Part shown: positions 1 through 35,530 of the stretch, one piece after another
Layout: each line of letters starts with the position of its first letter
How positions within the stretch are numbered: position 1 is the first letter of the stretch
Assembly: GCF_036321535.1 (NCBI RefSeq)
Contig: NC_087436.1
Span: 2,356,001-2,420,000 of the forward strand
Direction: 5' to 3'
Length of the DNA: 64,000 nucleotides
DNA from: Camelus dromedarius
Taxonomy: Eukaryota
Notes under the pieces: model-generated
Seen by the model: only the letters and a program-made list of their open reading frames with translations
Told to the model about the DNA's origin: nothing
The model's database searches: none
Position numbers and translations under genes: made by a program

Positions 1-940
1 TTACTCTGGTTTCTCAGTCTGTTTCCTAGTGCCGGTTTGAAGTTCCTGCAGTTTTCACTGTAAAACCGAGGTGGAGCTAGTACCTTCCCATATATATGTA
101 TGGAGTTAAGTTTGCAAGTGAAAAGAAACTATGTGTTCCCAAGAAGCTACGTGAAGGACGGCTTTCACACACACATATCTCTCAGAACTGAGCATGTGGA
201 GAGACGTTCTTTCATCAAGCACAAAGGGAACGGGTTGCAGGAGAAACTTTTACTCTGGTTTCTCAGTCTGTTTCCTAGTGCCGGTTTGAAGTTCCTGCAG
301 TTTTCACTGTAAAATCGAGTTGGAGCTAGTACCTCCCCATATATATGTATGGAGTTTAGTTTGAAATTGAAAAGAGCTTTGTGTTAACAACAAGCTAGGT
401 GAAGGACGGCTTTCACACACACTTATCTCTCAGAACTGAGCATTTGGAGAGACTTTCGTTCATCTACCACAAAGGGAACGGGTTGCAGGAGAAACTATTT
501 CTCTGGTTTCTCAGTCTGTTTCCTGTTGCCGGTTTGAAGTTCCTGCAGTTTTCACTGTACAACCGAGTTGGTGCTAGTACCTCCCCATATATATGTATGG
601 AGTGGAGTTTCAACTGAAAAGAAACTTTGTGTTCCCAAGAGGCTAGGTGAAGGACGGCTTTCACACACACTTATCTCTCTGAACTGACAATGTGTAGAGA
701 GCTTCGTTCATCTAGCACAAATTGAACGGGTTGCAGGAGAAACTTTTCTCTGGTTTCTCAGTCTGTTTCCTAGTGCCGCTTTGAAGTTCCTGCAGTTTTC
801 ACTGTAAAACCGAGTTGGAGCTAGTACCTCCCCATATATATGTATGGAGTTTACTTTGCAAGTTAAAAGAAACTTTGTGTCCCCAACAAGCTAGTTGAAG
901 GATGGCTTTCACTCACACTTATCTCTCTGAACTGAGCATG

Positions 941-3900
941 GGTAGAGAGCTTCGTTCATCTAGCACAAAGGGAACGGTTTGCAGGAGAAACTTATCTCTG
1001 TTTTCTCAGTCTGTTTCCTAGTGCCGGTTTCAAGTTCCTGCAGTTTTCACTGTAAAATCGAGTTGGAGCTAGTACCTCCCCATATATATGTATGGAGTGG
1101 AGTTTGCAACTGAAAGGAACTATGTGTTCCCAAGAAGCTAGGTGAAGGACGGCTTTCACACACACTTATCTCTCAGAACTGAGCATGTGGAGAGACGTTC
1201 GTTCTTCTAGCACAAAGGGAACGGGTTGCAGGAGAAACTTTTACTCTGGTTTCTCAGTCTGTTTCCTAGTGCCGGTTTGAAGTTCCTGCAGTTTTCACTG
1301 TAAAACCGAGTTGGAGCTTGTACCTCCCCATATATATGTATGGAGTGGAGTTTGCAAGTGAAAAGAAACTTTGTGTTCCCAACAAGCTAGTTGAAGGACG
1401 GCCTTCACACACACTTATCTCTCAGAACTGAGCATGTGGAGAGACGTTCGTTCATCTAGCACAAATGGAACGGATTGCAGGAGAAACTTTACTCTGGTTT
1501 CTCAGTCTGTTTCCTAGTGCCGGTTTGAAGTTCCTGCAGTTTTCACTGTAAAACCGAGTTGGAGCTTGTACCTTCCCATATATATGTATGGAGTTAAGTT
1601 TGCAAGTGAAAAGAAATTTTGTGTTCCCAAGAAGCTACGTGAAGGACGGCTTTCACACACACTTATCTCTCAGAACTGAGCATGTGGAGAGACTTTCGTT
1701 CATCTAGCACAAAGGGAACGGGTTGCAGGAGAAACTTTTACTCTGGTTTCTCAGTCTGTTTCCTAGTGCCGGTTTGAAGTTCCTGCAGTTTTCACTGTAA
1801 AATCGAGTTGGAGCTAGTACCTCCCCATATATATGTATGGAGTTTAGTTTGAAAATGAAAAGAAACTTTGTGTTCACAACAAGCTAGGTGAAGGACGGCT
1901 TTCACACACACTTATCTCTCAGAACTGAGCATTTGGAGAGACTTTCGTTCATCTACCACAAAGGGAACGGGTTGCAGGAGAAACTTTTTCTCTGGTTTCT
2001 CAGTCTGTTTCCTGTTGCCGGTTTGAAGTTCCTGCAGTTTTCACTGTACAACCGAGTTGGTGCTAGTACCTCCCCATATATATGTATGGAGTGGTGTTTC
2101 AACTGAAAAGAAAATTTGTGTTCCCAAGAGACTAGGTGAAGTACGGCTTTCACACACACTTATCTCTCTGAACTGACAATGTGTAGAGAGCTTCGTTCAT
2201 CTAGCACAAAGTGAACGGGTTGCAGGGGAAACTTTTCTCTGGTTTCTCAGTCTGTTTCCTAGTGCCGGTTTGAAGTTCCTGCAGTTTTCACTGTAAAACC
2301 GATTTGGAGCTAGTACCTCCCCATATATATGTATGGAGTTTAGTTTGCAATTTAAAAGAATCTTTGTGTCCCCAACAAGCTAGGTGAAGGACGGCTTTCA
2401 CTCACACTTATCTCTCTGAACTGAGCATGGGTAGAGAGCTTCGTTCATCTAGCACAAAGGGAACGGTTTGCAGGAGAAACTTATCTCTGTTTTCTCAGTC
2501 TGTTTCCTAGTGCCGGTTTCAAGTTCCTGCAGTTTTCACTGTAAAACAGAGTTGGAGCTAGTACCTCCCCATATATATGTATGGAGTGGAGTTTGCAATT
2601 GAAAAGAAACTTTGAGTTCCCAACAAGCTATGTGAAGGACGGCTTTCACAAACAATTATCTCTCAGAACTGAGCAAGTGGAGAGACGTTCGTTCATCTAG
2701 TACAAAGGGAACGGGTTGCAGGTGAAACTTTTTCTCTTGTTTCTCAGTCTGTTTCCTGTTGCCGGTTTAAAGTTCCTGCAGTTTTCACTGTAAAACCGAG
2801 TTGGAGCTAGTACCTCCCCATATGTATGTATGGATTGGAGTTTGCAACTGAAAGGAACTTTGTGTTCCCAAGAAGCTAGGTGAAGGACGGCTTTCACACA
2901 CACTTATCTCTCAGAACTGAGCATGTGGAGAGACGTTCGTTCATCTAGCACAAAGGGAACGGGTTGCAGGAGAAACTTTTACTCTGGTTTCTCAGTCTGT
3001 TTCCTAGTGCCGGATTGAAGTTCCTGCAGTTTTCACTGTAAAACCGTGTTGGAGCTTGTACCTCCCCATATATATGGATGGAGTGGAGTTTGCAAGTGAA
3101 AAGAAACTTTGTGTTCCCAACAAGCTAGGTGAAGGACCGCCTTCACACACACTTATCTCTCAGAACTGAGCATGTGGAGAGACGTTCGTTCATCTAGAAA
3201 ATGGGAACGGGTTGCAGGAGAAACTTTACTCTGGTTTCTCAGTCTGTTTCCTAGTGCCGGTTTGAAGTTCTTGCAGTTTTCACTGTAAAACCGAGTTGGA
3301 GCTAGTACCTCCCCATATATATGTATGGAGTTTAGTTTGCAATTGAAAAGAAACTTTGTGTTCCCAACAAGCTAGGTGAAGGACGGCTTTCACACACAAT
3401 TATCTCTCAGAACTGAGCAAGTGGAGAGACGTTCGTTCATCTAGCACAAAAGGAAAGGTTTGCAGGAGAAACTTTTTCTCTGGTTTCTCAGTCTGTTTCC
3501 TGTTGCCGGTTTAAAGTTCCTGCAGTTTTCACTGTAAAACCGAGTTGGAGCTAGTACCTCCCCATATATATGTATGGAGTGTAGTTTGCAACTGAAAGGA
3601 ACTTTGTGTTCCCAAGAATCTATGTGAAGGTCGGCTTTCACACACACTTATCTCTCAGAACTGAGCATGTGGAGAGACGTTCGTTCATCTAGCAAAAATG
3701 GAACGGGTTGCAGGAGAAACTTTTACTCTGGTTTCTCAGTCTGTTTCCTAGTGTCGGTTTGAAGTTCCTGCAGTTTTCACTGTAAAATCGAGTTGGAGCT
3801 AGTACCTCCCCATATATATGTATGGAGTTTAGTTTGCAATTGAAAAGAAACTTTGTGTTCCCAACAAGCTAGTTGAAGGACGGCTTTCACACACAATTAT

Positions 3901-6900
3901 CTCTCAGAACTGAGCAAGTGGAGAGACGTTCGTTCATCTAGCACAAAAGGAACGGTTTGCAGGAGAAACTTTTTCTCTGGTTTCTCAGTCTGTTTCCTGT
4001 TGCCGGTTTAAAGTTCCTGCAGTTTTCACTGTGAAACCGAGTTGGAGCTAGTACCTCCCCATATATATGTATGGAGTGTAGTTTGCAACTGAAAGGAACT
4101 TTGTGTTCCCAAGAATCTATGTGAAGGTCGGCTTTCACACACAATTATCTCTCAGAACTGAGCATGTGGAGAGACGTTCGTTCATGTAGCAAAAATGGAA
4201 CTAGTTGCAGGAGAAACTTTTACTCTGGTTTCTCAGTCTGTTTCCTAGTGCCGGTTTGACGTTCCTGCAGTTTTCACTGTAAAACCGATTTGGATCTAGT
4301 ACCTCCCCAAATATATGTATGGAGTGGGGTTTGCAAGTGAAAAGAAACTTTGTGTTCCCAAAAAGCTGGTTGAAGGACGGCTTTCACACACACTTATCTC
4401 TCAGAACTGAGCATGTGGAGAGACGTTCGTTCATCTAGCAAAAATGGAACGGGTTGCAGGAGAAACTTTTACTCTGGTTTCTCAGTCTGTTTCCTAGTGC
4501 CGGTTTGAAGTTCCTGCAGTTTTCACTGTAAAATCGAGTTGGAGCTAGTACCTCCCCATATATATGTATGGAGTTTAGTTTGAAAATGAAAAGAAACTTT
4601 GTGTTCACAACAAGCTAGGTGAAGGACGGCTTTCACACACACTTATCTCTCAGAACTGAGCATTTGGAGAGACTTTCGTTCATCTACCACAAAGGGAACG
4701 GGTTGCAGGAGAAACTTTTTCTCTGGTTTCTCAGTCTGTTTCCTGTTGCCGGTTTGAAGTTCCTGCAGTTTTCACTGTACAACCGAGTTGGTGCTAGTAC
4801 CTCCCCATATATATGTATGGAGTGGAGTTTCAACTGAAAAGAAACTTTGTGTTCCCAAGAGACTAGGTGAAGGACGGCTTTCACACACACTTATCTCTCT
4901 GAACTGACAATGTGTAGAGAGCTTCGTTCATCTAGCACAAAGTGAACGGGTTGCAGGGGAAACTTTTCTCTGGTTTCTCAGTCTGTTTCCTAGTGCCGGT
5001 TTGAAGTTCCTGCAGTTTTCACTGTAAAACCGATTTGGAGCTAGTACCTCCCCATATATATGTATGGAGTTTAGTTTGCAATTTAAAAGAATCTTTGTGT
5101 CCCCAACAAGCTAGGTGAAGGACGGCTTTCACTCAAACTAATCTCTCTGAACTGAGCATGGGTAGAGAGCTTCGTTCATCTAGCACAAAGGGAACGGTTT
5201 GCAGGAGAAACTTATCTCTGTTTTCTCAGTCTGTTTCCTAGTGCCGGTTTCAAGTTCCTGCAGTTTTCACTGTAAAATCGAGTTGGAGCTAGTACCTCCC
5301 CATATATATGTATGGAGTGGAGTTTGCAACTGAAAGGAACTATGTGTTCCCAAGAAGCTAGGTGAAGGACGGCTTTCACACACACTTATCTCTCAGAACT
5401 GAGCATGTGGAGAGACGTTCGTTCTTCTAGCACAAAGGGAACGGGTTGCAGGAGAAACTTTTACTCTGGTTTCTCAGTCTGTTTCCTAGTGCCGGTTTGA
5501 AGTTCCTGCAGTTTTCACTGTAAAACCGAGTTGGAGCTTGTACCTCCCCATATATATGTATGGAGTGGAGTTTGCAAGTGAAAAGAAACTTTGTGTTCCC
5601 AACAAGCTAGTTGAAGGACGGCCTTCACACACACTTATCTCTCAGAACTGAGCATGTGGAGAGACGTTCGTTCATCTAGCACAAATGGAACGGATTGCAG
5701 GAGAAACTTTACTCTGGTTTCTCAGTCTGTTTCCTAGTGCCGGTTTGAAGTTCCTGCAGTTTTCACTGTAAAACCGAGTTGGAGCTTGTACCTTCCCATA
5801 TATATGTATGGAGTTAAGTTTGCAAGTGAAAAGAAACTTTGTGTTCCCAAGAAGCTACGTGAAGGACGGCTTTCACACACACTTATCTCTCAGAACTGAG
5901 CATGTGGAGAGACTTTCGTTCATCTAGCACAAAGGGAACGGGTTGCAGGAGAAACTTTTACTCTGGTTTCTCAGTCTGTTTCCTAGTGCCGGTTTGAAGT
6001 TCCTGCAGTTTTCACTGTAAAATCGAGTTGGAGCTAGTACCTCCCCATATATATGTATGGAGTTTAGTTTGAAAATGAAAAGAAACTTTGTGTTCACAAC
6101 AAGCTAGGTGAAGGACGGCTTTCACACACACTTATCTCTCAGAACTGAGCATTTGGAGAGACTTTCGTTCATCTACCACAAAGGGAACGGGTTGCAGGAG
6201 AAACTTTTTCTCTGGTTTCTCAGTCTGTTTCCTGTTGCCGGTTTGAAGTTCCTGCAGTTTTCACTGTACAACCGAGTTGGTGCTAGTACCTCCCCATATA
6301 TATGTATGGAGTGGTGTTTCAACTGAAAAGAAAATTTGTGTTCCCAAGAGACTAGGTGAAGTACGGCTTTCACACACACTTATCTCTCTGAACTGACAAT
6401 GTGTAGAGAGCTTCGTTCATCTAGCACAAAGTGAACGGGTTGCAGGGGAAACTTTTCTCTGGTTTCTCAGTCTGTTTCCTAGTGCCGGTTTGAAGTTCCT
6501 GCAGTTTTCACTGTAAAACCGATTTGGAGCTAGTACCTCCCCATATATATGTATGGAGTTTAGTTTGCAATTTAAAAGAATCTTTGTGTCCCCAACAAGC
6601 TAGGTGAAGGACGGCTTTCACTCACACATATCTCTCTGAACTGAGCATGGGTAGAGAGCTTCGTTCATCTAGCACAAAGGGAACGGTTTGCAGGAGAAAC
6701 TTATCTCTGTTTTCTCAGTCTGTTTCCTAGTGCCGGTTTCAAGTTCCTGCAGTTTTCACTGTAAAACAGAGTTGGAGCTAGTACCTCCCCATATATATGT
6801 ATGGAGTGGAGTTTGCAATTGAAAAGAAACTTTGAGTTCCCAACAAGCTATGTGAAGGACGGCTTTCACAAACAATTATCTCTCAGAACTGAGCAAGTGG

Positions 6901-9300
6901 AGAGACGTTCGTTCATCTAGTACAAAGGGAACGGGTTGCAGGTGAAACTTTTTCTCTTGTTTCTCAGTCTGTTTCCTGTTGCCGGTTTAAAGTTCCTGCA
7001 GTTTTCACTGTAAAACCGAGTTGGAGCTAGTACCTCCCCATATGTATGTATGGATTGGAGTTTGCAACTGAAAGGAACTTTGTGTTCCCAAGAAGCTAGG
7101 TGAAGGACGGCTTTCACACACACTTATCTCTCAGAACTGAGCATGTGGAGAGACGTTCGTTCATCTAGCACAAAGGGAACGGGTTGCAGGAGAAACTTTT
7201 ACTCTGGTTTCTCAGTCTGTTTCCTAGTGCCGGATTGAAGTTCCTGCAGTTTTCACTGTAAAACCGTGTTGGAGCTTGTACCTCCCCATATATATGGATG
7301 GAGTGGAGTTTGCAAGTGAAAAGAAACTTTGTGTTCCCAACAAGCTAGGTGAAGGACCGCCTTCACACACACTTATCTCTCAGAACTGAGCATGTGGAGA
7401 GACGTTCGTTCATCTAGAAAATGGGAACGGGTTGCAGGAGAAACTTTACTCTGGTTTCTCAGTCTGTTTCCTAGTGCCGGTTTGAAGTTCTTGCAGTTTT
7501 CACTGTAAAACCGAGTTGGAGCTAGTACCTCCCCATATATATGTATGGAGTTTAGTTTGCAATTGAAAAGAAACTTTGTGTTCCCAACAAGCTAGGTGAA
7601 GGACGGCTTTCACACACAATTATCTCTCAGAACTGAGCAAGTGGAGAGACGTTCGTTCATCTAGCACAAAAGGAAAGGTTTGCAGGAGAAACTTTTTCTC
7701 TGGTTTCTCAGTCTGTTTCCTGTTGCCGGTTTAAAGTTCCTGCAGTTTTCACTGTAAAACCGAGTTGGAGCTAGTACCTCCCCATATATATGTATGGAGT
7801 GTAGTTTGCAACTGAAAGGAACTTTGTGTTCCCAAGAATCTATGTGAAGGTCGGCTTTCACACACACTTATCTCTCAGAACTGAGCATGTGGAGAGACGT
7901 TCGTTCATCTAGCAAAAATGGAACGGGTTGCAGGAGAAACTTTTACTCTGGTTTCTCAGTCTGTTTCCTAGTGTCGGTTTGAAGTTCCTGCAGTTTTCAC
8001 TGTAAAATCGAGTTGGAGCTAGTACCTCCCCATATATATGTATGGAGTTTAGTTTGCAATTGAAAAGAAACTTTGTGTTCCCAACAAGCTAGTTGAAGGA
8101 CGGCTTTCACACACAATTATCTCTCAGAACTGAGCAAGTGGAGAGACGTTCGTTCATCTAGCACAAAAGGAACGGTTTGCAGGAGAAACTTTTTCTCTGG
8201 TTTCTCAGTCTGTTTCCTGTTGCCGGTTTAAAGTTCCTGCAGTTTTCACTGTGAAACCGAGTTGGAGCTAGTACCTCCCCATATATATGTATGGAGTGTA
8301 GTTTGCAACTGAAAGGAACTTTGTGTTCCCAAGAATCTATGTGAAGGTCGGCTTTCACACACAATTATCTCTCAGAACTGAGCATGTGGAGAGACGTTCG
8401 TTCATGTAGCAAAAATGGAACTAGTTGCAGGAGAAACTTTTACTCTGGTTTCTCAGTCTGTTTCCTAGTGCCGGTTTGACGTTCCTGCAGTTTTCACTGT
8501 AAAACCGATTTGGATCTAGTACCTCCCCAAATATATGTATGGAGTGGGGTTTGCAAGTGAAAAGAAACTTTGTGTTCCCAAAAAGCTGGTTGAAGGACGG
8601 CTTTCACACACACTTATCTCTCAGAACTGAGCATGTGGAGAGACGTTCGTTCATCTAGCAAAAATGGAACGGGTTGCAGGAGAAACTTTTACTCTGGTTT
8701 CTCAGTCTGTTTCCTAGTGCCGGTTTGAAGTTCCTGCAGTTTTCACTGTAAAATCGAGTTGGAGCTAGTACCTCCCCATATATATGTATGGAGTTTAGTT
8801 AGAAAATGAAAAGAAACTTTGTGTTCACAACAAGCTAGGTGAAGGACGGCTTTCACACACACTTATCTCTCAGAACTGAGCATTTGGAGAGACTTTCGTT
8901 CATCTACCACAAAGGGAACGGGTTGCAGGAGAAACTTTTTCTCTGGTTTCTCAGTCTGTTTCCTGTTGCCGGTTTGAAGTTCCTGCAGTTTTCACTGTAC
9001 AACCGAGTTGGTGCTAGTACCTCCCCATATATATGTATGGAGTGGAGTTTCAACTGAAAAGAAACTTTGTGTTCCCAAGAGACTAGGTGAAGGACGGCTT
9101 TCACACACACTTATCTCTCTGAACTGACAATGTGTAGAGAGCTTCGTTCATCTAGCACAAAGTGAACGGGTTGCAGGGGAAACTTTTCTCTGGTTTCTCA
9201 GTCTGTTTCCTAGTGCCGGTTTGAAGTTCCTGCAGTTTTCACTGTAAAACCGATTTGGAGCTAGTACCTCCCCATATATATGTATGGAGTTTAGTTTGCA
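941..9300. repeat. Higher-order repeat, 4220 bp period (17 monomers), two near-identical copies
   Basis: Identical ORFs recur at a 4220 offset: 1888/6108, 2697/6917, 3441/7661, 3938/8158, 4619/8839. Private variants recur too, e.g. GGAACTATGTG near 1116 and 5336. Sequence before ~940 differs from its offset partner, which sets the left edge. Confidence 0.92.
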
Positions 9301-10790
9301 ACTGAAAGGAACTTTGTGTTCCCAAGAATCTATGTGAAGGTCGGCTTTCACACACACTTATCTCTCAGAACTGAGCATGTGGAGAGACGTTCGTTCATCT
9401 AGCAAAAATGGAACGGGTTGCAGGAGAAACTTTTACTCTGGTTTCTCAGTCTGTTTCCTAGTGTCGGTTTGAAGTTCCTGCATTTTTCACTGTAAAATCG
9501 AGTTGGAGCTAGTACCTCCCCATATATATGTATGGAGTTTAGTTTGCAATTGAAAAGAAACTTTGTGTTCCCAACAAGCTAGTTGAAGGACGGCTTTCAC
9601 ACACAATTATCTCTCAGAACTGAGCAAGTGGAGAGACGTTCGTTCATCTAGCACAAAAGGAACGGTTTGCAGGAGAAACTTTTTCTCTGGTTTCTCAGTC
9701 TGTTTCCTGTTGCCGGTTTAAAGTTCCTGCAGTTTTCACTGTGAAACCGAGTTGGAGCTAGTACCTCCCCATATATATGTATGGAGTGTAGTTTGCAACT
9801 GAAAGGAACTTTGTGTTCCCAAGAATCTATGTGAAGGTCGGCTTTCACACACAATTATCTCTCAGAACTGAGCATGTGGAGAGACGTTCGTTCATGTAGC
9901 AAAAATGGAACTAGTTGCAGGAGAAACTTTTACTCTGGTTTCTCAGTCTGTTTCCTAGTGCCGGTTTGACGTTCCTGCAGTTTTCACTGTAAAACCGATT
10001 TGGATCTAGTACCTCCCCAAATATATGTATGGAGTGGGGTTTGCAAGTGAAAAGAAACTTTGTGTTCCCAAAAAGCTGGTTGAAGGACGGCTTTCACACA
10101 CACTTATCTCTCAGAACTGAGCATGTGGAGAGACGTTCGTTCATCTAGCAAAAATGGAACGGGTTGCAGGAGAAACTTTTACTCTGGTTTCTCAGTCTGT
10201 TTCCTAGTGCCGGTTTGAAGTTCCTGCAGTTTTCACTGTAAAATCGAGTTGGAGCTAGTACCTCCCCATATATATGTATGGAGTTTAGTTTGAAAATGAA
10301 AAGAAACTTTGTGTTCACAACAAGCTAGGTGAAGGACGGCTTTCACACACACTTATCTCTCAGAACTGAGCATTTGGAGAGACTTTCGTTCATCTACCAC
10401 AAAGGGAACGGGTTGCAGGAGAAACTTTTTCTCTGGTTTCTCAGTCTGTTTCCTGTTGCCGGTTTGAAGTTCCTGCAGTTTTCACTGTACAACCGAGTTG
10501 GTGCTAGTACCTCCCCATATATATGTATGGAGTGGAGTTTCAACTGAAAAGAAACTTTGTGTTCCCAAGAGACTAGGTGAAGGACGGCTTTCACACACAC
10601 TTATCTCTCTGAACTGACAATGTGTAGAGAGCTTCGTTCATCTAGCACAAAGTGAACGGGTTGCAGGGGAAACTTTTCTCTGGTTTCTCAGTCTGTTTCC
10701 TAGTGCCGGTTTGAAGTTCCTGCAGTTTTCACTGTAAAACCGATTTGGAGCTAGTACCTCCCCATATATATGTATGGAGTTTAGTTTGCA
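7811..10790. repeat. 6-monomer tandem duplication (1490 bp), junction near 9292-9301
   Basis: ORF pairs 8158/9648 and 8839/10329 are offset by 1490. ACTGAAAGGA...AAGAATCTATG at 7811 restarts at 9301 inside a monomer whose 5' part is the CGATTTGG/TTTAGT type. The expected continuation (ATTTAAAAGAATC) resumes at 10791. Confidence 0.88.
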
Positions 10791-13700
10791 ATTTAAAAGA
10801 ATCTTTGTGTCCCCAACAAGCTAGGTGAAGGACGGCTTTCACTCAAACTAATCTCTCTGAACTGAGCATGGGTAGAGAGCTTCGTTCATCTAGCACAAAG
10901 GGAACGGTTTGCAGGAGAAACTTATCTCTGTTTTCTCAGTCTGTTTCCTAGTGCCGGTTTGAAGTTCCTGCAGTTTTCACTGTAAAACAGAGTTGGAGCT
11001 AGTACCTCCCCATATATATGTATGGAGTGGAGTTTGCAACTGAAAAGAAACTTTGAGTTCCCAACAAGCTATGTGAAGGACGGCTTTCACAAACAATTAT
11101 CTCTCAGAACTGAGCAAGTGGAGAGACGTTCGTTCATTTAGCACAAAAAGAACGGTTTGCAGGAGAAACTTTTTCTCTGGTTTCTCAGTCTGTTTCCTGT
11201 TGCCGGTTTAAAGTTCCTGCAGTTTTCACTGTAAAACCGAGTTGGAGCTAGTACCTCCCCATATATATGTATGGAGTGTAGTTTGCAACTGAAAGGAACT
11301 TTGTGTTCCCAAGAATCTATGTGAAGGTCGGCTTTCACACACACTTATCTCTCAGAACTGAGCATGTGGAGAGACGTTCGTTCATCTAGCAAAAATGGAA
11401 CGGGTTGCAGGAGAAACTTTTACTCTGGATTCTCAGTCTGTTTCCTAGTGTCGGTTTGAAGTTCCTGCAGTTTTCACTGTAAAACCGAGTTGGAGCTTGT
11501 ACCTCCCCATATATATGTATGGAGTGGAGTTTGCAAGTGAAAAGAAACTTTGTGTTCCCAACAAGATAGGTGAAGGACCGCCTTCACACACACTTATCTC
11601 TCAGAACTGAGCATGTGGAGAGACGTTCGTTCATCTAGCAAAAATGGAACGGGTTGCAGGAGAAACTTTTACTCTGGATTCTCAGTCTGTTTCCTAGTGT
11701 CGGTTTGAAGTTCCTGCAGTTTTCACTGTAAAACCGAGTTGGAGCTTGTACCTCCCCATATATATGTATGGAGTGGAGTTTGCAAGTGAAAAGAAACTTT
11801 GTGTTCCCAACAAGATAGGTGAAGGACCGCCTTCACACACACTTATCTCTCAGAACTGAGCATGTGGAGAGACGTTCGTTCATCTAGAAAATGGGAACGG
11901 GTTGCAGGAGAAACTTTACTCTGGTTTCTCAGTCTGTTTCCTAGTGCCGGTTTGAAGTTCTTGCAGTTTTCACTGTAAAACCGAGTTGGAGCTAGTACCT
12001 CCCCATATATATGTATGGAGTTTAGTTTGCAATTGAAAAGAAACTTTGTGTTCCCAACAAGCTAGGTGAAGGACGGCTTTCACACACAATTATCTCTCAG
12101 AACTGAGCAAGTGGAGAGACGTTCGTTCATCTAGCACAAAAGGAAAGGTTTGCAGGAGAAACTTTTTCTCTGGTTTCTCAGTCTGTTTCCTGTTGCCGGT
12201 TTAAAGTTCCTGCAGTTTTCACTGTAAAACCGAGTTGGAGCTAGTACCTCCCCATATATATGTATGGAGTGTAGTTTGCAACTGAAAGGAACTTTGTGTT
12301 CCCAAGAATCTATGTGAAGGTCGGCTTTCACACACACTTATCTCTCAGAACTGAGCATGTGGAGAGACGTTCGTTCATCTAGCAAAAATGGAACGGGTTG
12401 CAGGAGAAACTTTTACTCTGGTTTCTCAGTCTGTTTCCTAGTGTCGGTTTGAAGTTCCTGCAGTTTTCACTGTAAAATCGAGTTGGAGCTAGTACCTCCC
12501 CATATATATGTATGGAGTTTAGTTTGCAATTGAAAAGAAACTTTGTGTTCCCAACAAGCTAGTTGAAGGACGGCTTTCACACACAATTATCTCTCAGAAC
12601 TGAGCAAGTGGAGAGACGTTCGTTCATCTAGCACAAAAGGAACGGTTTGCAGGAGAAACTTTTTCTCTGGTTTCTCAGTCTGTTTCCTGTTGCCGGTTTA
12701 AAGTTCCTGCAGTTTTCACTGTGAAACCGAGTTGGAGCTAGTACCTCCCCATATATATGTATGGAGTGTAGTTTGCAACTGAAAGGAACTTTGTGTTCCC
12801 AAGAATCTATGTGAAGGTCGGCTTTCACACACAATTATCTCTCAGAACTGAGCATGTGGAGAGACGTTCGTTCATGTAGCAAAAATGGAACTAGTTGCAG
12901 GAGAAACTTTTACTCTGGTTTCTCAGTCTGTTTCCTAGTGCCGGTTTGACGTTCCTGCAGTTTTCACTGTAAAACCGATTTGGATCTAGTACCTCCCCAA
13001 ATATATGTATGGAGTGGGGTTTGCAAGTGAAAAGAAACTTTGTGTTCCCAAAAAGCTGGTTGAAGGACGGCTTTCACACACACTTATCTCTCAGAACTGA
13101 GCATGTGGAGAGACGTTCGTTCATCTAGCAAAAATGGAACGGGTTGCAGGAGAAACTTTTACTCTGGTTTCTCAGTCTGTTTCCTAGTGCCGGTTTGAAG
13201 TTCCTGCAGTTTTCACTGTAAAATCGAGTTGGAGCTAGTACCTCCCCATATATATGTATGGAGTTTAGTTTGAAAATGAAAAGAAACTTTGTGTTCACAA
13301 CAAGCTAGGTGAAGGACGGCTTTCACACACACTTATCTCTCAGAACTGAGCATTTGGAGAGACTTTCGTTCATCTACCACAAAGGGAACGGGTTGCAGGA
13401 GAAACTTTTTCTCTGGTTTCTCAGTCTGTTTCCTGTTGCCGGTTTGAAGTTCCTGCAGTTTTCACTGTACAACCGAGTTGGTGCTAGTACCTCCCCATAT
13501 ATATGTATGGAGTGGAGTTTCAACTGAAAAGAAACTTTGTGTTCCCAAGAGACTAGGTGAAGGACGGCTTTCACACACACTTATCTCTCTGAACTGACAA
13601 TGTGTAGAGAGCTTCGTTCATCTAGCACAAAGTGAACGGGTTGCAGGGGAAACTTTTCTCTGGTTTCTCAGTCTGTTTCCTAGTGCCGGTTTGAAGTTCC

Positions 13701-14618
13701 TGCAGTTTTCACTGTAAAACCGATTTGGAGCTAGTACCTCCCCATATATATGTATGGAGTTTAGTTTGCAATTTAAAAGAATCTTTGTGTCCCCAACAAG
13801 CTAGGTGAAGGACGGCTTTCACTCAAACTAATCTCTCTGAACTGAGCATGGGTAGAGAGCTTCGTTCATCTAGCACAAAGGGAACGGTTTGCAGGAGAAA
13901 CTTATCTCTGTTTTCTCAGTCTGTTTCCTAGTGCCGGTTTGAAGTTCCTGCAGTTTTCACTGTAAAACAGAGTTGGAGCTAGTACCTCCCCATATATATG
14001 TATGGAGTGGAGTTTGCTACTGAAAAGAAACTTTGAGTTCCCAACAAGCTATGTGAAGGACGGCTTTCACAAACAATTATCTCTCAGAACTGAGCAAGTG
14101 GAGAGACGTTCGTTCATTTAGCACAAAAAGAACGGTTTGCAGGAGAAACTTTTTCTCTGGTTTCTCAGTCTGTTTCCTGTTGCCGGTTTAAAGTTCCTGC
14201 AGTTTTCACTGTAAAACCGAGTTGGAGCTAGTACCTCCCCATATATATGTATGGAGTGTAGTTTGCAACTGAAAGGAACTTTGTGTTCCCAAGAATCTAT
14301 GTGAAGGTCGGCTTTCACACACACTTATCTCTCAGAACTGAGCATGTGGAGAGACGTTCGTTCATCTAGCAAAAATGGAACGGGTTGCAGGAGAAACTTT
14401 TACTCTGGATTCTCAGTCTGTTTCCTAGTGTCGGTTTGAAGTTCCTGCAGTTTTCACTGTAAAACCGAGTTGGAGCTTGTACCTCCCCATATATATGTAT
14501 GGAGTGGAGTTTGCAAGTGAAAAGAAACTTTGTGTTCCCAACAAGATAGGTGAAGGACCGCCTTCACACACACTTATCTCTCAGAACTGAGCATGTGGAG
14601 AGACGTTCGTTCATCTAG
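9301..14618. repeat. 12-monomer duplication (2980 bp offset) = 11-mer plus one duplicated monomer
   Basis: ORF pairs 9648/12628, 10329/13309 and 11138/14118 are all offset by 2980. Shared private variants include TTCATTTAGCACAAAAAG and ACTCAAACTAATC. Confidence 0.88.
11345..11885. repeat. Single-monomer tandem duplication (249 bp)
   Basis: The private variants ACTCTGGATT and CAAGATAGGTGAAGGACCGCC occur in two adjacent monomers (CGGG at 11401 and 11650) but only once in the paralogous block at 14381-14570. Confidence 0.85.
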
Positions 14619-15204
14619 AAAAAGGGAACGGGTTGCAGGAGAAACTTTACTCTGGTTTCTCAGTCTGTTTCCTAGTGCCGGTTTGAAGTTCTTGCAGTTT
14701 TCACTGTAAAACCGAGTTGGAGCTAGTACCTCCCCATATATATGTATGGAGTTTAGTTTGCAATTGAAAAGAAACTTTGTGTTCCCAACAAGCTAGGTGA
14801 AGGACGGCTTTCACACACAATTATCTCTCAGAACTGAGCAAGTGGAGAGACGTTCGTTCATCTAGCACAAAAAGAACGGTTTGCAGGAGAAACTTTACTC
14901 TGGTTTCTCAGTCTGTTTCCTAGTGCCGGTTTCAATTTCCTGCAGTTTTCACTGTAAAACCGAGTTGGAGCTAGTACCTCCCCATATATATGTATGGAGT
15001 GGAGTTTGCAACTGAAAAGAAACTTTGAGTTCCCAACAAGCTAGGTGAAGGACGGCTTTCACACACAATTATCTCTCAGAACTGAGCAAGTGGAGAGACG
15101 TTCGTTCATCTAGTACAAAGGAACGGGTTGCAGGTGAAACTTTTTCTCTAGTTTCTCAGTCTGTTTCCTGTTGCCGGTTTAAAGTTCCTGCAGTTTTCAC
15201 TGTA

Positions 15205-18200
15205 AAACCGAGTTGCAGCTAGTACCTCCCCTTATATATGTATGGATTGGAGTTTGCAACGGAAAGGAACTTTGTGTTCCCAAGAAGCTAGGTGAAGGAC
15301 GGCTTTCACACACACTTATCTCTCAGAACTGAGCATGTGGAGACACGTTCGTTCATCTAGCACAAAGGGAACGGGTTGCAGGAGAAACTTTTACTCTGGT
15401 TTCTCAGACTGTTTCCTAGTGCCTGTTTGAAGTTCCTGCAGTTTTCACTGTAAAACCGAGTTGGAGCTTGTACCTCCCCTTATATATGTATGGAGTGGAG
15501 TTTGCAAGTGAAAAGAAACTTTGTGTTCCCAACAAGCTAGGTGAAGGACGGCTTTCACACACACTTATCTCTCAGAACTGAGCATGTGGAGAGACGTTCG
15601 TTCATCTAGAAAAAGGGAACGGTTTGCAGGAAAAACTTTACTCTGGTTTCTCAGTCTGTTTCTTAGTGCCGGTTTGAAGTTCCTGCAGTTTTCACTGTAA
15701 AACCGAGTTGGAGCTATTACCTTCCCATATATATGTATGGAGTTAGGTTTGCAAGTGAAAAGAAACTTTGTGTTCCCAAGAAGCTACGTGAAGGACGGCT
15801 TTCACACACACTTATCTCTCAGAACTGAGCATGTGGAGACACGTTCGTTCAGATAGCACAAAGGGAACGGGTTGCAGGAGAAACTTTTACTCTGGTTTCT
15901 CAGTCTGTTTCCTAGTGTCGGTTTGAAGTTCCTGCAGTTTTCACTGTAAAATCGAGTTGGAGCTAGTACCTCCCCATATATATGTATGGAGTTTAGTTTG
16001 CATTTGAAAAGAAACTTTGTGTTCCCAACAAATTAGGTGAAGGACGCCTTTCACACACAATTATCTCTCAGAACTCAGCAAGTGGAGAGACGTTCGTTCA
16101 TCTAGCACAAAAGGAACGGTTTGCAGGAGAAATTTTTTCTCTGGTTTCTCAGTCTGTTTCCTGTTGCCGGTTTAAAGTTCCTGCAGTTTTCACTGTAAAA
16201 CCGAGTTGGAGCTAGTACCTCCCCATATATATGTATGGATTGGAGTTTGCAACTGAAAGGAACTTTGTGTTCCCAAGAAGCTAGGTGAAGGACGGCTTTC
16301 ACACACACTTATCTCTCTGAACTGAGCATGTGGAGAGACGTTCGTTCATCTAGCACAAAGGGAACGGGTTGCAGGAGAAACTTTTACTCTGGTTTCTCAG
16401 TCTGTTTCCTAGTGCCGGATTGAAGTTCCTGCAGTTTTCACTGTAAAACCGAGTTGGAGCTTGTACCTCCCCATATATATGTATGGAGTGGAGTTTGCAA
16501 GTGAAAAGAAACTTTGTGTTCCCAACAAGCTAGGTGAAGGACGGCCTTCACACACACTTATCTCTCAGAACTGAGCATGTGGAGAGACGTTCGTTCATCT
16601 AGAAAAAGGGAACGGGTTGCAGGAGAAACTTTACTCTGGTTTCTCAGTCTGTTTCCTAGTGCCGGTTTGAAGTTCTTGCAGTTTTCACTGTAAAACCGAG
16701 TTGGAGCTAGTACCTCCCCATATATATGTATGGAGTTTAGTTTGCAATTGAAAAGAAACTTTGTGTTCCCAACAAGCTAGGTGAAGGACGGCTTTCACAC
16801 ACAATTATCTCTCAGAACTGAGCAAGTGGAGAGAGGTTCGTTCATCTAGCACAAAAGGAACGGTTTGCAGGAGAAACTTTTTGTCTGGTTTCTCAGTCTG
16901 TTTCCTGTTGCCGGTTTAAAGTTCCTGCAGTTTTCACTGTAAAACCGAGTTGGAGCTAGTACCTCCCCATATATATGTATGGAGTGTAGTTTGCAACTGA
17001 AAGGAACTTTGTGTTCCCAAGAATCTATGTGAAGGTCGGCTTTCACACACACTTATCTCTCAGAACTGAGCATGTGGAGAGACGTTCGTTCATCTAGCAA
17101 AAATGGAACGGGTTGCAGGAGAAACTTTTACTCTGGTTTCTCAGTCTGTTTCCTAGTGTCGGTTTGAAGTTCCTGCAGTTTTCACTGTAAAATCGAGTTG
17201 GAGCTAGTACCTCCCCATATATATGTATGGAGTTTAGTTTGCAATTGAAAAGAAACTTTGTGTTTCCAACAAGCTAGTTGAAGGACGGCTTTCACACACA
17301 AATATCTCTCAGAACTGAGCAAGTGGAGAGACGTTCGTTCATCTAGCACAAAAGGAACGGTTTGCAGGAGAAACTTTTTCTCTGGTTTCTCAGTCTGTTT
17401 CCTGTTGCCGGTTTAAAGTTCCTGCAGTTTTCACTGTGAAACCGAGTTGCAGCTAGTACCTCCCCTTATATATGTATGGATTGGAGTTTGCAACGGAAAG
17501 GAACTTTGTGTTCCAAAGAAGCTAGGGGAAGGACGGCTTTCACACACACTTATCTCTCAGAACTGAGCATGTGGAGACACGTTCGTTCATCTAGCACAAA
17601 GGGAACGGGTTGCAGGAGAAACTTTTACTCTGGTTTCTCAGACTGTTTCCTAGTGCCTGTTTGAAGTTCCTGCAGTTTTCACTGTAAAACCGAGTTGGAG
17701 CTTGTACCTCCCCTTATATATGTATGGAGTGGAGTTTGCAAGTGAAAAGAAACTTTGTGTTCCCAACAAGCTAGGTGAAGGACGGCTTTCACACACACTT
17801 ATCTCTCAGAACTGAGCATGTGGAGAGACGTTCGTTCATCTAGAAAAAGGGAACGGTTTGCAGGAAAAACTTTACTCTGGTTTCTCAGTCTGTTTCCTAG
17901 TGCCGGTTTGAAGTTCCTGCAGTTTTCACTGTAAAACCGAGTTTGAGGTAGTACCTTCCCATATATATGTATGGAGTTAGGTTTGCAAGTGAAAAGAAAC
18001 TTTGTGTTCCCAAGAAGCTACGTGAAGGACGGCTTTCACACACACTTATCTCTCAGAACTGAGCATGTGGAGACACGTTCGTTCAGCTAGCACAAAGGGA
18101 ACGGGTTGCAGGAGAAACTTTTACTCTGGTTTCTCAGTCTGTTTCCTAGTGTCGGTTTGAAGTTCCTGCAGTTTTCACTGTAAAATCGAGTTGGAGCTAG

Positions 18201-19680
18201 TACCTCCCCATATATATGTATGGAGTTTAGTTTGCATTTGAAAAGAAACTTTGTGTTCCCAACAAACTAGGTGAAGGACGCCTTTCACACACAATTATCT
18301 CTCAGAACTCAGCAAGTGGAGAGACGTTCGTTCATCTAGCACAAAGGGAACGGTTTGCAGGAGAAATTTTTTCTCTGGTTTCTCAGTCTGTTTCCTGTTG
18401 CCGGTTTAAAGTTCCTGCAGTTTTCACTGTAAAACCGAGTTGGAGCTAGTACCTCCCCATATATATGTATGGATTGGAGTTTGCAACTGAAAGGAACTTT
18501 GTGTTCCCAAGAAGCTAGGTGAAGGACGGCTTTCACACACACTTATCACTCTGAACTGAGCATGTGGAGAGACGTTCGTTCATCTAGCACAAAGGGAACG
18601 GGTTGCAGGAGAAACTTTTACTCTGGTTTCTCAGTCTGTTTCCTAGTGCCGGATTGAAGTTCCTGCAGTTTTCACTGTAAAACCGAGTTGGAGCTTGTAC
18701 CTCCCCATATATATGTATGGAGTGGAGTTTGCAAGTGAAAAGAAACTTTGTGTTCCCAACAAGCTAGGTGAAGGACGGCCTTCACACACACTTATCTCTC
18801 AGAACTGAGCATGTGGAGAGACGTTCGTTCATCTAGAAAAAGGGAACGGGTTGCAGGAGAAACTTTACTCTGGTTTCTCAGTCTGTTTCCTAGTGCCGGT
18901 TTGAAGTTCTTGCAGTTTTCACTGTAAAACCGAGTTGGAGCTAGTACCTCCCCATATATATGTATGGAGTTTAGTTTGCAATTGAAAAGAAACTTTGTGT
19001 TCCCAACAAGCTAGGTGAAGGACGGCTTTCACACACAATTATCTCTCAGAACTGAGCAAGTGGAGAGAGGTTCGTTCATCTAGCACAAAAGGAACGGTTT
19101 GCAGGAGAAACTTTTTGTCTGGTTTCTCAGTCTGTTTCCTGTTGCCGGTTTAAAGTTCCTGCAGTTTTCACTGTAAAACCGAGTTGGAGCTAGTACCTCC
19201 CCATATATATGTATGGAGTGTAGTTTGCAACTGAAAGGAACTTTGTGTTCCCAAGAATCTATGTGAAGGTCGGCTTTCACACACACTTATCTCTCAGAAC
19301 TGAGCATGTGGAGAGACGTTCGTTCATCTAGCAAAAATGGAACGGGTTGCAGGAGAAACTTTTACTCTGGTTTCTCAGTCTGTTTCCTAGTGTCGGTTTG
19401 AAGTTCCTGCAGTTTTCACTGTAAAATCGAGTTGGAGCTAGTACCTCCCCATATATATGTATGGAGTTTAGTTTGCAATTGAAAAGAAACTTTGTGTTCC
19501 CAACAAGCTAGTTGAAGGACGGCTTTCACACACAAATATCTCTCAGAACTGAGCAAGTGGAGAGACGTTCGTTCATCTAGCACAAAAGGAACGGTTTGCA
19601 GGAGAAACTTTTTCTCTGGTTTCTCAGTCTGTTTCCTGTTGCCGGTTTAAAGTTCCTGCAGTTTTCACTGTGAAACCGAG
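15205..19680. repeat. 9-monomer duplication (2234 bp period), two copies
   Basis: ORF pairs 16102/18336 and 16846/19080 are offset by 2234. The private string AGTTGCAGCTAGTACCTCCCCTTA...CAACGGAAAGG occurs at 15211 and 17445. Confidence 0.88.
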
Positions 19681-20330
19681 TTGGAGCTAGTACCTCCCCA
19701 TATATATGTATGGAGTGTAGTTTGCAACTGAAAGGAACTTTGTGTTCCCAAGAATCTATGTGAAGGTCGGCTTTCACACACACTTATCTCTCAGAACTGA
19801 GCATGTGGAGAGACGTTCGTTCATCTAGCAAAAATGGAACGGGTTGCAGGAGAAACTTTTACTCTGGTTTCTCAGTCTGTTTCCTAGTGTTGGTTTGATG
19901 TTCCTGCAGTTTTCACTGTAAAATCGAGTTGGAGCTAGTACCTCCCCATATATATGTATGGAGTTTAGTTTGCAATTGAAAAGAAACTTTGTGTTCCCAA
20001 CAAGCTAGTTGAAGGACGGCTTTCACACACAATTATCTCTCAGAACTGAGCAAGTGGAGAGACGTTCGTTCATCTAGCACAAAAGGAACGGTTTGCAGGA
20101 GAAACTTTTTCTCTGGTTTCTCAGTCTGTTTCCTGTTGCCGGTTTAAAGTTCCTGCAGTTTTCACTGTGAAACCGAGTTGGAGCTAGTACCTCCCCATAT
20201 ATATGTATGGAGTGTAGTTTGCAACTGAAAGGAACTTTGTGTTCCCAAGAATCTATGTGAAGGTCGGCTTTCACACACAATTATCTCTCAGAACTGAGCA
20301 TGTGGAGAGACGTTCATTCATCTAGCAAAA
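19080..20330. repeat. Run of 2-monomer units (497 bp period)
   Basis: ORFs at 19080, 19577 and 20074 are spaced by 497. A TGTTGCCGGTTTAAAG/AAGAATCTATG monomer alternates with an AAAAATGGAA/AAATCG/GCAATTG monomer. The same dimer spacing occurs at 3441/3938, 7661/8158 and 12131/12628. Confidence 0.82.
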
Positions 20331-23300
20331 ATGGAACGAGTTGCAGGAGAAACTTTTACTCTGGTTTCTCAGTCTGTTTCCTAGTGCCGGTTTGACGTTC
20401 CTGCAGTTTTCACTGTAAAACCGATTTGGATCTAGTACCTCCCCAAATATATGTATGGAGTGGGGTTTGCAAGTGAAAAGAAACTTTGTGTTCCCAAAAA
20501 GCTGGTTGAAGGACGGCTTTCACACACACTTATTTCTCAGAACTGAGCATGTGGAGAGATGTTCGTTCATCTAGCAAAAATGGAACGGGTTGCAGGAGAA
20601 ACTTTACTCTGGTTTCTCAGTCTGTTTCCTAGTGCCGGTTTCAAGTTCCTGCAGTTTTCGCTGTAAAACCGAGTTGGAACTAGTACCTCCCCATATATAT
20701 GTATGGAGTGGAGTTTGCAAGTGAAAAGAAACTTTGTGTTCCCAACAAGCTAGGTGAAGGACGGCTTTCACACACACTTATCTCTCAGAACTGAGCATGT
20801 GGAGAGACGTTCGTTCATCTAGAAAAAGGGAACGGTTTGCAGGAAAAACTTTACTCTGGTTTCTCAGTTTGTTTCCTAGTGCCGGTTTGAATTTCCTGCA
20901 GTTTTCACTGTAAAACCGAGTTGGAGCTAGTACCTTCCCATATATATGTATGGAGTTAGGTTTGCAAGTGAAAAGAAACTTTGTGTTCCCAAGAAGCTAC
21001 GTGAAGGACGGCTTTCACACACACTTATCTCTCAGAACTGAGCATGTGGAGACACGTTCGTTCAGCTAGCACAAAGGGAACGGGTTGCAGGAGAAACTTT
21101 TACTCTGGTTTCTCAGTCTGTTTCCTAGTGTCGGTTTGAAGTTCCTGCAGTTTTCACTGTAAAATCGAGTTGGAGCTAGTACCTCCCCATATATATGTAT
21201 GGAGTTTAGTTTGCATTTGAAAAGAAACTTTGTGTTCCCAACAAACTAGGTGAAGGATGGCTTTCACACACAATTATCTCTCAGAACTGAGCAAGTGGAG
21301 AGACGTTCGTTCATCTAGCACAAAAGGAACGGTTTGCAGGAGAAATTTTTTCTCTTGTTTCTCAGTCTGTTTCCTGTTGCCGGTTTAAAGTTCCTGCAGT
21401 TTTCAGTGTAAAATCGAGTTGGAGCTAGTACCTCCCCATATATATGTATGGAGTGTAGTTTGCAACTGAAAGGAACTTTGTGTTCGCAAGAATCTATGTG
21501 AAGGTCGGCTTTCACACACACTTATCTCTCAGAACTGAGCATGTGGAGACACGTTCGTTCATCTAGCACAAAGGGAACGGGTTGCAGGAGAAACTTTTAC
21601 TCTGGTTTCTCAGACTGTTTCCTAGTGCCTGTTTGAAGTTCCTGCAGTTTTCACTGTAAAACCGAGTTGGAGCTTGTACCTCCCCTTATATATGTATGCA
21701 GTGGAGTTTGCAAGTGAAAAGAAACTTTGTGTTCCCAACAAGCTAGGTGAAGGACGGCTTTCACACACACTTATCTCTCAGAACTGAGCATGTGGAGAGA
21801 CGTTCGTTCATCTAGAAAAAGGGAACGGTTTGCAGGAAAAACTTTACTCTGGTTTCTCAGTCTGTTTCCTAGTGCCGGTTTGAAGTTCCTGCAGTTTTCA
21901 CTGTAAAACCGAGTTGGAGCTAGTACCTTCCCATATATATGTATGGAGTTAGGTTTGCAAGTGAAAAGAAACTTTGTGTTCCCAAGAAGCTACGTGAAGG
22001 ACGGCTTTCACACACACTTATCTCTCAGAACTGAGCATGTGGAGACACGTTCGTTCAGCTAGCACAAAGGGAACGGGTTGCAGGAGAAACTTTTACTCTG
22101 GTTTCTCAGTCTGTTTCCTAGTGTCGGTTTGAAGTTCCTGCAGTTTTCACTGTAAAATCGAGTTGGAGCTAGTACCACCCCATATATATGTATGGAGTGG
22201 AGTTTGCAAGTGAAAAGAAACTTTGTGTTCCCAACAAGCTAGGTGATGGACGGCTTTCACACACACATATCTCTCAGAACTGAGCATGTGGAGACACGTT
22301 CGTTCAGCTAGCACAAATGGAACGGGTTGCAGGAGAAAGTTTTACTCTGGTTTTTCAGTCTGTTTCCTAGTGTCGGTTTGAAGTTCCTGCAGTTTTCACT
22401 GTAAAATCGAGTTGGAGCTAGTACCTCCCCATATATATGTATGGAGTTTAGTTTGCATTTGAAAAGAAACTTTGTGTTCCCAACAAGCTAGGTGAAGGAC
22501 GGCTTTCACACACAATTATCTCTCAGAACTGAGCAAGTGGAGAGACGTTCGTTCATCTAGCACAAAAGGAACGGTTTGCAGGAGAAACTTTTTCTCTGGT
22601 TTCTCAGTCTGTTTCCTGTTGCCGGTTTAAAGTTCCTGCAGTTTTCACTGTAAAACCGAGTTGGAGCTAGTACCTTCCCATATATATGTATGGAGTTTAG
22701 TTTGCAATTGAAAAGAAACTTTGTGTTCCCAACAAGCTAAGTGAAGGACGGCTTTCACACACAATTATCTCTCAGAACTGAGCAAGTGGAGAGACGTTCG
22801 TTCATCTAGCACAAAAGGAAAGGTTTGCAGGAGAAACTTTTTCTCTGGTTTCTCAGTCTGCTTCCTGTTGCCGGTTTAAAGTTCCTGCAGTTTTCACTGT
22901 AAAAGCGAGTTGGAGCTTGTACCTCCCCATATATATGTATGGAGTGTAGTTTGCAACTGAAAGGAACTTTGTGTTCCCAAGAAGCTATGTGAAGGTCGGC
23001 TTTCACACACACTTATCTCTCAGAACTGAGCATGTGGAGAGACGTTCGTTCATCTAGCAAAATGGGAACGGGTTGCAGGAGAAACTTTTACTGTGGTTTC
23101 TCAGTCTGTTTCCTAGTGCTGGTTTGACGTTCCTGCAGTTTTCACTGTAAAACCGAGTTTGAGGTAGTACCTCCCCGTATATATGTATGGAGTGGAGTTT
23201 GCAACTGAAAAGAATGTTTGTGTTCCCAACAAGCTAGGTGAAGGACGGCTTTCACACACACTTATCTCTCAGTAATGAGCATGTGGAGAGACGTTCGTTC

Positions 23301-32000: not shown

Positions 32001-32250
32001 ACAAAGGGAACGGGTTGCAGGAGAAACTTTTACTCTGGTTTCTCAGTCTGTTTCCTAGTATCGGTTTGAAGTTCCTGCAGTTTTCACTGTAAAACCGAGT
32101 TTGAGGTAGTACCTCCCCATATATATGTATGGAGTGGAGTTTGCAACTGAAAAGAAAGTTTGTGTTCCCAACAAGCTAGGTGAAGGACGGCTTTCACACA
32201 CACTTATCTCTCAGTACTGAGCATGTGGAGAGACGTTCGTTCATCTAGCA
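26005..32250. repeat. 11-monomer duplication with a nested 3-monomer duplication (net 3479 bp offset, 14 monomers)
   Basis: ORFs 26775/30254 are offset by 3479. The marker CGGCTTGCAG lies at 26048, 28781 (+2733, 11 monomers) and 29527 (+746, 3 monomers). Shared private variants include CAATTCTCTCTCAGAGCTGAGCAAGAG and TTATTTCTAAGATC. Confidence 0.88.
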
Positions 32251-34479: not shown

Positions 34480-34975
34480 ACAAAGGGAACGGATTGCAGG
34501 AGAAACTTATCTCTTGTTTCCCAGTCTGTTTCCTGTTGCCGGTTTAAAGTTCCTGCATTTTCACTGTAAAACTGAGTTGGAGCTTGTACCTCCCCATATA
34601 TATGTATGGAGTGGCGTTTGCAACTGAAAGGTACTTTGTGTTCCCAAGGAGCTAGGTGAAGGACGGCTTTAACCCACACTTATTTCTCAGAATTGAGCAT
34701 GAGGAGAGATGTTCGTTCAAATAGCACAAAGGGAACGGATTGCAGGAGAAACTTTTTCTCTTGTTTCCCAGTCTGTTTCCTGTTGCCGGTTTAAAGTTCC
34801 TGCATTTTCACTGTAAAACTGAGTTGGAGCTTGTACCTCCCCATATATATGTATGGAGTGGCGTTTGCAACTGAAAGGAACTTTGTGTTCCCAAGGAGCT
34901 AGGTGAAGGACGGCTTTAACCCACACTTATCTCTCAGAATTGAGCATGAGGAGAGATGTTCGTTCAAATAGCACA
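34480..34975. repeat. Single-monomer tandem duplication (247 bp variant monomer)
   Basis: ORF ends 34679 and 34926 are 247 apart. Adjacent monomers share CGGATTGC, GCATTTTCAC, AAACTGAG, GGCGTTTG, CTTTAACCCAC and CAAATAGC. Confidence 0.83.
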
Positions 34976-35530
34976 AAGGGAACGGGTTGCAGGAGAAACT
35001 TTTACTCTGTTTTCTCAGTCTGTTTCCTAGTGTCGGTTTGAAGTTCCTGCAGTTTTCACTGTAAAATCGAGTTGGAGCTAGTACCATCCCATATATATGT
35101 ATGGAGTTTAGTTTGCAATTGAAAAGAAACTTTGTGTTCACAACAAGCTAGGTGTAGGACGGCTTTCACACACACTTATCTCTCAGAACTGAGCATGTGT
35201 AGAGACTTTGGTTCATCTAGCACAAAGGGAACGGGTTGCAGGAGAAACTTTTACTCTGGTTTCTCAGTCTCTTTCCTGTTGCCGGTTTGAAGTTCCTGCA
35301 GTTTTCACTGTATAACCGAGTTGGTGCTAGTACTTCCCCATATATATCTATGGAGTGGAGTTTCAACTGAAAAGAAACTTTGTGTTCCCAAGAGGATAGG
35401 TGAAGGACGGCTTTCACACACACTTATCTCTCTGAACTGACAATGTGTAGAGAGCTTCGTTCATCTAGCACAAACGGAACGGGTTGCAGGAGAAACTTTT
35501 CTCTGTATTCTCAGTCTGTTTCCTGTTGCC

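Follow-up and report, generated by a model that had tools for sequence, protein, structure and literature searches.

The question which this locus raises is whether the monomer of a long satellite array carries, besides its sequence, a folded shape on which selection acts. The earlier note had read three consecutive inverted repeats in one monomer of the dromedary genome and had proposed that each copy could fold into a three-armed single-stranded DNA or RNA structure. The window, by which we mean the whole stretch of 64,000 nucleotides that was analysed, is filled without a break by a tandem array with a period of 248 bp (TRF) and 257.9 copies. Full monomers could be cut in 257 cases, intervals of 247-249 bp were found in 252 of 258, and the mean identity of monomers to the consensus is 94.4%. 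The features discussed below are collected in Table 1.

Table 1. Features of the camel satellite array, in coordinates of the window.
Feature	Position	Strand	Intact copies	Remarks
Camelid 248/249-bp satellite array, head-to-tail	1..63995	+		runs past both window ends
Example monomer	2864..3112	+		consensus position p = window 2863+p
Stem 1	2864..2960			arms ~2864-2906 and 2918-2960; decayed long inverted repeat; no other part clearly exceeds chance by itself
Short dyad, 5-bp arms, 2-nt spacer	2910..2921		182/257	rivals stem 1 apex; pair probability 0.00-0.17
Stem 2, 7-bp helix enclosing 50 nt	2965..3028		192/257	two pairs broken in llama
7-bp dyad, 10-nt spacer	2970..2993		126/257	longest short-spacer dyad; pair probability 0.51-0.96
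Stem 3, 8-bp helix enclosing 57 nt	3030..3102		82/257 (8/8 pairs)	
AT-rich perfect palindrome, 10 bp	3067..3076		194/257	unpaired in predicted folds (0.00-0.01)
Local higher-order duplication, 17 monomers	879..9070	+		identity at least 98%
Local higher-order duplication, 12 monomers	9318-14533			identity at least 98%
Local higher-order duplication, 9 monomers	15276-19495			identity at least 98%
Local higher-order duplication, 14 monomers	25952-32163			identity at least 98%
Local higher-order duplication, 8 monomers	47274-51002			identity at least 98%
Local higher-order repeat, 16 monomers, about three copies	49759..61428	+		identity at least 98%

The supplement of Melters 2013 (PMC4053949) holds for Lama glama a candidate centromere repeat of 248 bp, which makes up 2.9% of the llama genome. 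Compared by eye, the camel consensus is identical to this llama unit (one published sequence, which may be idiosyncratic) at 234 of 249 positions, with 14 substitutions and one deletion, and the match confirms that both belong to the same satellite family. Judged by this likeness, the repeat in the window is the camelid candidate centromere satellite that has been in print since 2013, so that the earlier description of it as a candidate centromeric satellite stands; the array itself probably lies at a centromere. The repeat is very abundant: contigs matching one monomer number 413,091 in the DNA run X1 and 782,426 in X2, and the loose ends of DNA contigs, among the matches listed, were all satellite sequence. 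Of the 46 common variants in these two runs, the 40 that were listed include no llama-specific letter, as would fit an Old World camel. A 23-mer of the satellite gave no match in metagenomes, and the 18-mer matches that did appear (120 metagenome loci and one viral) align over at most 30 bp in 121 of 121 cases and are unrelated to the satellite.

The literature searched contained no description of the hairpin, of the local higher-order duplications or of the transversion-rich spectrum that are reported here, nor any record of CENP-A occupancy or of FISH signal at the primary constriction for this repeat; the 1987 and 1994 papers on camelid satellites, cited by PMC13751797, lie outside it. The words 'palindrom' and 'secondary structure' do not occur in the main text of PMC4053949, as far as that text was accessible. 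In the accessible parts of the 2026 alpaca survey (PMC13751797) centromeric satellites are set aside, and its spreadsheet has none of four satellite motifs.

All motifs of the example monomer were recovered where they had been described, and the three spans (97+64+73) indeed cover 234 of its 249 bp. In the consensus, three spans tile 235 of 249 positions when every span must have a perfect closing helix of at least 6 bp, a threshold that was picked once the stems were known; 14 of 1500 shuffles tile as well (4/1500, 11/1000, 6/300 and 5/200 in four other settings), and with 5-bp closing helices at least 234 nt are tiled in 25 of 60. The example monomer is a favourable case. The tiling is retained in 122 of the 257 monomers, the outer stems are all perfect in 15, and all nine listed elements are present in two. 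Compared with shuffles, the fold of the example monomer has z -2.7 for DNA (0/200 as good) and z -3.7 for RNA (1/200); the + strand of the consensus is matched by 0/60 shuffles for RNA and 1/60 for DNA, and the - strand is weak, at 4/60 and 9/60. The expectation that folding energy and dyad density would rise above shuffled sequence was borne out.

The three-armed structure itself, supposed to be repeated about 258 times, is not supported by the analysis. With 125-nt neighbours attached on each side, stem 1 has a pair probability of 0.94-0.99 in + strand RNA, about 0 in - strand RNA and 0.33-0.65 in DNA. Stem 2 mostly gives way to the local 7-bp dyad (pair probability 0.03-0.32 in the array context), and stem 3 ranges between 0.00 and 0.68, varying with strand and molecule. 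A fixed three-armed fold is not predicted, since stems 2 and 3 pair so poorly in the presence of neighbours. In addition, consensus position 233 (window 3096) is C at 71% of depth in X1 and 70% in X2, so that in about 70% of copies across the genome the eighth pair of stem 3 is broken and its closing helix reduced to 6 bp. Perfect helices of at least 7 bp within 100 nt number four in the consensus against 1.6 expected (11/100 shuffles), and those of at least 8 bp one against 0.57 (41/100); taken singly, stems 2 and 3 are chance-level helices.

Stem 1 is of a different kind, and we regard it as a genuine, partly decayed hairpin. The earlier note was right that it exists and gave it too small an extent: consensus positions 1-43 pair with 55-97, forming arms of about 43 bp, and the 42 oppositions comprise 30 Watson-Crick pairs, 4 G.T, 4 A.C and 4 other. 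Folded alone as RNA, 2864-2960 reaches -41.9 kcal/mol (z -6.0, 0/200 shuffles), and sliding windows place nearly all the excess folding signal of the monomer in positions 1-97. When stem 1 was compared with whichever 97-nt window folded best in each shuffled monomer, no shuffle was as good with RNA energies (0/110), nor, on both strands, with RNA energies without G.U (0/60); with DNA energies without G.U or G.T ten of 60 were. By an einverted-like score it does not stand out (29/60 and 10/60 shuffles equal or better).

It could be argued that any 249-mer inspected post hoc would give such stems. The level of stems 2 and 3, the einverted-like scores, the DNA best-window result and the tiling with 5-bp closing helices would all agree with this, but with RNA energies stem 1 beat the best windows of all 110 and all 60 shuffles, and the tiling with longer closing helices was seldom matched, so that we hold mere chance to be highly improbable.

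The mismatches of stem 1 carry some information on its history. Wobble-type mismatches are balanced (G.T as frequent as A.C), which fits decay at the DNA level, and 8 of 12 mismatches are of the transition type against a Ti/Tv of 0.37-0.56 in the array, which hints that the decay preceded amplification (binomial ~0.02, in a register biased to G.T). Two llama changes in the internal loop might, by eye, add pairs; this is a weak hint that the ancestral arms may have been better matched. As for known mobile sources, stem 1 lacks the target-site duplication of a MITE or fold-back element: the sequences on either side of consensus 1-97 do not repeat each other directly, and pairing stops there. Ends of the piggyBac type are expected to be flanked by TTAA, and by eye no TTAA flanks stem 1. 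A 7-bp helix over the monomer junction, in which consensus 244-1 pairs with 86-92 (window 3107-3113 with the region 3198-3204 of the next monomer), was also observed; in the consensus it is an alternative base for stem 1, and ten perfect helices of at least 6 bp compete overall.

If pairing mattered to the cell, it should have left a trace in the variation among monomers. A tree of 186 distinct monomers with 1021 changes was used for this purpose; gene conversion makes such a tree approximate, and the tests were many and of limited power. The stem sites of the earlier note took 3.7 changes per site against 4.4 elsewhere (permutation p 0.01-0.20 over four measures), and stem sites and short-dyad sites alike are about 15-25% less variable than others (further permutation p 0.03-0.04). 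Under a circular-shift null the stem sites ranked at 9-17/248 (7-25/248 with substitutions only) and the short-dyad sites, with a similar trend, at 9-21/248, while six control sets of direct, mirror and complement repeats displayed no such trend (93-242/248). The paired sites of stem 1 had no deficit of change by the shift test (37-116/248), and one of eight permutation tests gave p 0.048. In 93 of the 186 distinct monomers the mean stem-1 energy was -34.5, against -32.1 +/- 1.2 in a site-permuted null that preserves relatedness (6/200).

Compensation between paired positions, the other trace that had been proposed, stayed at the level of controls. Among 69 Watson-Crick pairs, 10 types of pair-restoring double change were found where matched controls gave 7.5 (p 0.22), or 13 against 16.7 when counted by cells; this comparison used 7574 control pairs and has limited power at ~6% divergence. 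One-sided changes that keep a pair made up 13% of types against 18% in controls. Seven of the 15 differences from the llama unit, which was compared by eye, fall inside the stems of the earlier note (6.1 expected) and 7/7 break a pair; 3/15 fall inside short dyads against 5.6 expected (p 0.12). The fair reading is that pairing is accompanied by no compensation and by a borderline conservation trend only (p 0.03-0.10), so that, of the two traces expected, conservation of paired sites is borderline and covariation is lacking; the outcome on this window is mostly negative.

This model, as formulated by Kasinathan and Henikoff 2018 (PMC5889037), measures dyad density from arms longer than 4 bp with spacers up to ~20 nt, as given in the accessible text, in which the word 'llama' does not occur. 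With spacers of 50-85 nt, stems 1-3 fall outside its class of spacers under 20 nt. By its metric short perfect dyads (at least 5 bp, spacer at most 20) are enriched about twofold: the consensus has 10 against 4.7, a number reached by 2/200 dinucleotide shuffles and 3/200 permutations, with a dyad density of 0.43 against 0.18-0.20 in shuffled or permuted sequence; for real monomers (86 of the 257) the density is 0.39 against 0.23. The excess is significant in one of ten parameter settings, the next best giving 13/200 and the remainder 47-200 of 200. The supposed lack of a CENP-B box was upheld, the best match to its core motif having 7 of 9 core bases in the 64 kb and 6 in the consensus. Two motifs quoted in the accessible text of PMC11343032, by which the satellite could have been a non-B substrate of CDCA7, are by eye absent from both strands of the consensus.

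One could suggest from these data that purifying selection preserves the short dyads because the transient hairpins or cruciforms which they form help to seed CENP-A; the dyads with short spacers would then matter, and not the three long-spacer stems. The dyad excess (density 0.43 against 0.20), the lack of a CENP-B box, the lower variability of dyad sites, the shortage of llama differences within dyads and a transversion-rich spectrum like that of active human arrays all point in this direction. Yet the excess depends on the parameter setting, the individual dyads are intact in just 126-211 of 257 monomers, no covariation was seen in a test that took in 22 of 52 short-dyad pairs, DNA folding of the - strand is unremarkable, and in grasshopper satellites short inverted repeats are common whatever the location, according to the accessible part of PMC8822648. 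We regard selection for dyad symmetry as an unlikely explanation of the array, albeit one with real points in its favour.

Over the 64 kb, perfect arms with loops of at most 10 nt include 137 cases at 7 bp, 10 at 8 bp and a single one at 9 bp. Arms of such length extrude poorly out of duplex DNA.

Another possibility is that stem 1 functions as RNA, as a + strand hairpin resembling a pri-miRNA or as a structural part of a centromeric RNA, made from satellite transcripts. The folding energy of its 97 nt is that of a long stable hairpin, it is predicted to pair almost completely in + strand RNA of the array and hardly ever in the - strand, and two single-cell RNA runs contain satellite reads, 301 and 214 out of 12,895,792 records each (~17-23 per million), counted in 1-2% of each run of single-cell cDNA. 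In run X21, 22 and 5 reads run into poly(A) at window 1354-1357 (consensus 229-232), an A-rich tract, which is consistent with internal priming by oligo-dT on + strand satellite RNA. Against such a function, these few reads have both orientations, span monomer junctions, show allele frequencies similar to those of the DNA runs and have no ends at the hairpin borders; in run X24, 18 molecules start at window 1430, away from these borders. The satellite RNA is at most low-level read-through, with DNA carry-over as a possible source. A search of two stretches against Rfam with E up to 10 gave 4 and 6 weak matches, none near the gathering score, and ARAGORN found no genes. The balance of G.T and A.C in stem 1 and the low share of one-sided changes that keep a pair also speak against an RNA hairpin, as does the fact that 41 of 186 distinct monomers fold stem 1 weaker than -30. 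A functional RNA hairpin is, in our opinion, very improbable indeed.

The array itself displays a spectrum of change that deserves attention. Between 135 and 63910 of the window the tree holds 266 transitions and 711 transversions (Ti/Tv 0.37), rare alleles give 0.49-0.56 and nearest neighbours 49:117, a spectrum for which assembly error is a possible source. CpG sites are not hypermutable, with 5.3-6.0 changes against 5.2-6.2 at other C and G. The accessible text of PMC13684623 gives a Ti/Tv of 0.55 for active human alpha satellite, and the nearness of the camel values lends support to an active centromeric array. We also observed an asymmetry of the + strand over the same positions, with 220 G>T events at 61 G sites and 108 C>A events at 51 C sites. 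Patches of more divergent monomers lie between the homogeneous blocks, at ~32164-35631 and 43561-46532, where the nearest neighbour is mostly 92-97% identical. An internal sub-repeat of the monomer (a dimer of ~125 bp or a trimer of ~83 bp) was sought and dismissed, 45/300 shuffles being as good.

We propose, with a probability of roughly 0.63, that the satellite descends from a founder with a fold-back and surplus short dyads, which were passively copied and are now eroding without compensation. The founder monomer would have carried one fold-back, probably an inverted duplication of ~43 bp that was already partly decayed, mainly by transitions, as well as somewhat more short dyads than average. 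Amplification and block duplication would have spread both passively to every monomer, and the array would now diversify by transversion-rich substitution and block duplication, with stems and dyads lost to point mutation; any selection on pairing may be weak, and the structures probably have no function. In duplex chromatin the long-spacer stems would stay unextruded, and DNA that is single-stranded or transcribed could form stem 1 as well as the local 7-bp dyad, with no fixed three-armed shape.

This proposal of passive copying is favoured because no covariation is seen, the stem-1 sites vary like others, every llama difference within the stems breaks a pair, and perfect arms with short spacers do not exceed 9 bp throughout the 64 kb. 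What counts against it is the reduced variation at stem and dyad sites while the controls are flat, and the stem-1 energy being slightly better than its null. These latter observations would suit a satellite founded on a fold-back whose dyad positions still feel measurable purifying selection, a combination that we find doubtful and that would, if true, put the dyad-symmetry model directly to the test. The variation among monomers would then record selection, either for non-B DNA or for a hairpin in + strand RNA, at a mammalian centromere free of CENP-B boxes. The satellite is a usable test case for whether DNA shape, as opposed to sequence, helps to specify centromeres without CENP-B boxes, since it has ~94% identity between camel and llama, its hairpin is defined and its variant copies run into thousands. 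Taken as a whole, this is a known satellite with a real decayed hairpin and an excess of dyads that is modest and of a kind already known, and a three-armed functional structure is not supported.

Among known systems the closest is the llama repeat, equal in length and, apart from the few differences seen by eye, in sequence, in which pairs of stems 1, 2 and 3 are broken; its higher-order structure is entered as 'not found' in the part of PMC4053949 that describes it, whereas the camel array has local duplications of 6 to 17 monomers. The satellites treated in the accessible text of PMC5889037 (Old World monkey alpha satellite, horse, chicken, stickleback) likewise lack the CENP-B box and have a ~2-fold excess of short dyads, but dyads under 10 nt are what is catalogued there, in contrast to the decayed fold-back with 43-bp arms and the long stem spacers of the camel satellite. 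With satellites derived from fold-back elements or MITEs, as far as the accessible sources describe them, the camel monomer has in common a long imperfect inverted repeat. Active human alpha-satellite arrays, in the accessible text of PMC13684623, share with it block duplications of near-identical multimers and a Ti/Tv near 0.5; the camel array differs from them in its 248-bp monomer, in the lack of a CENP-B box and in multimer periods that are local and varied.
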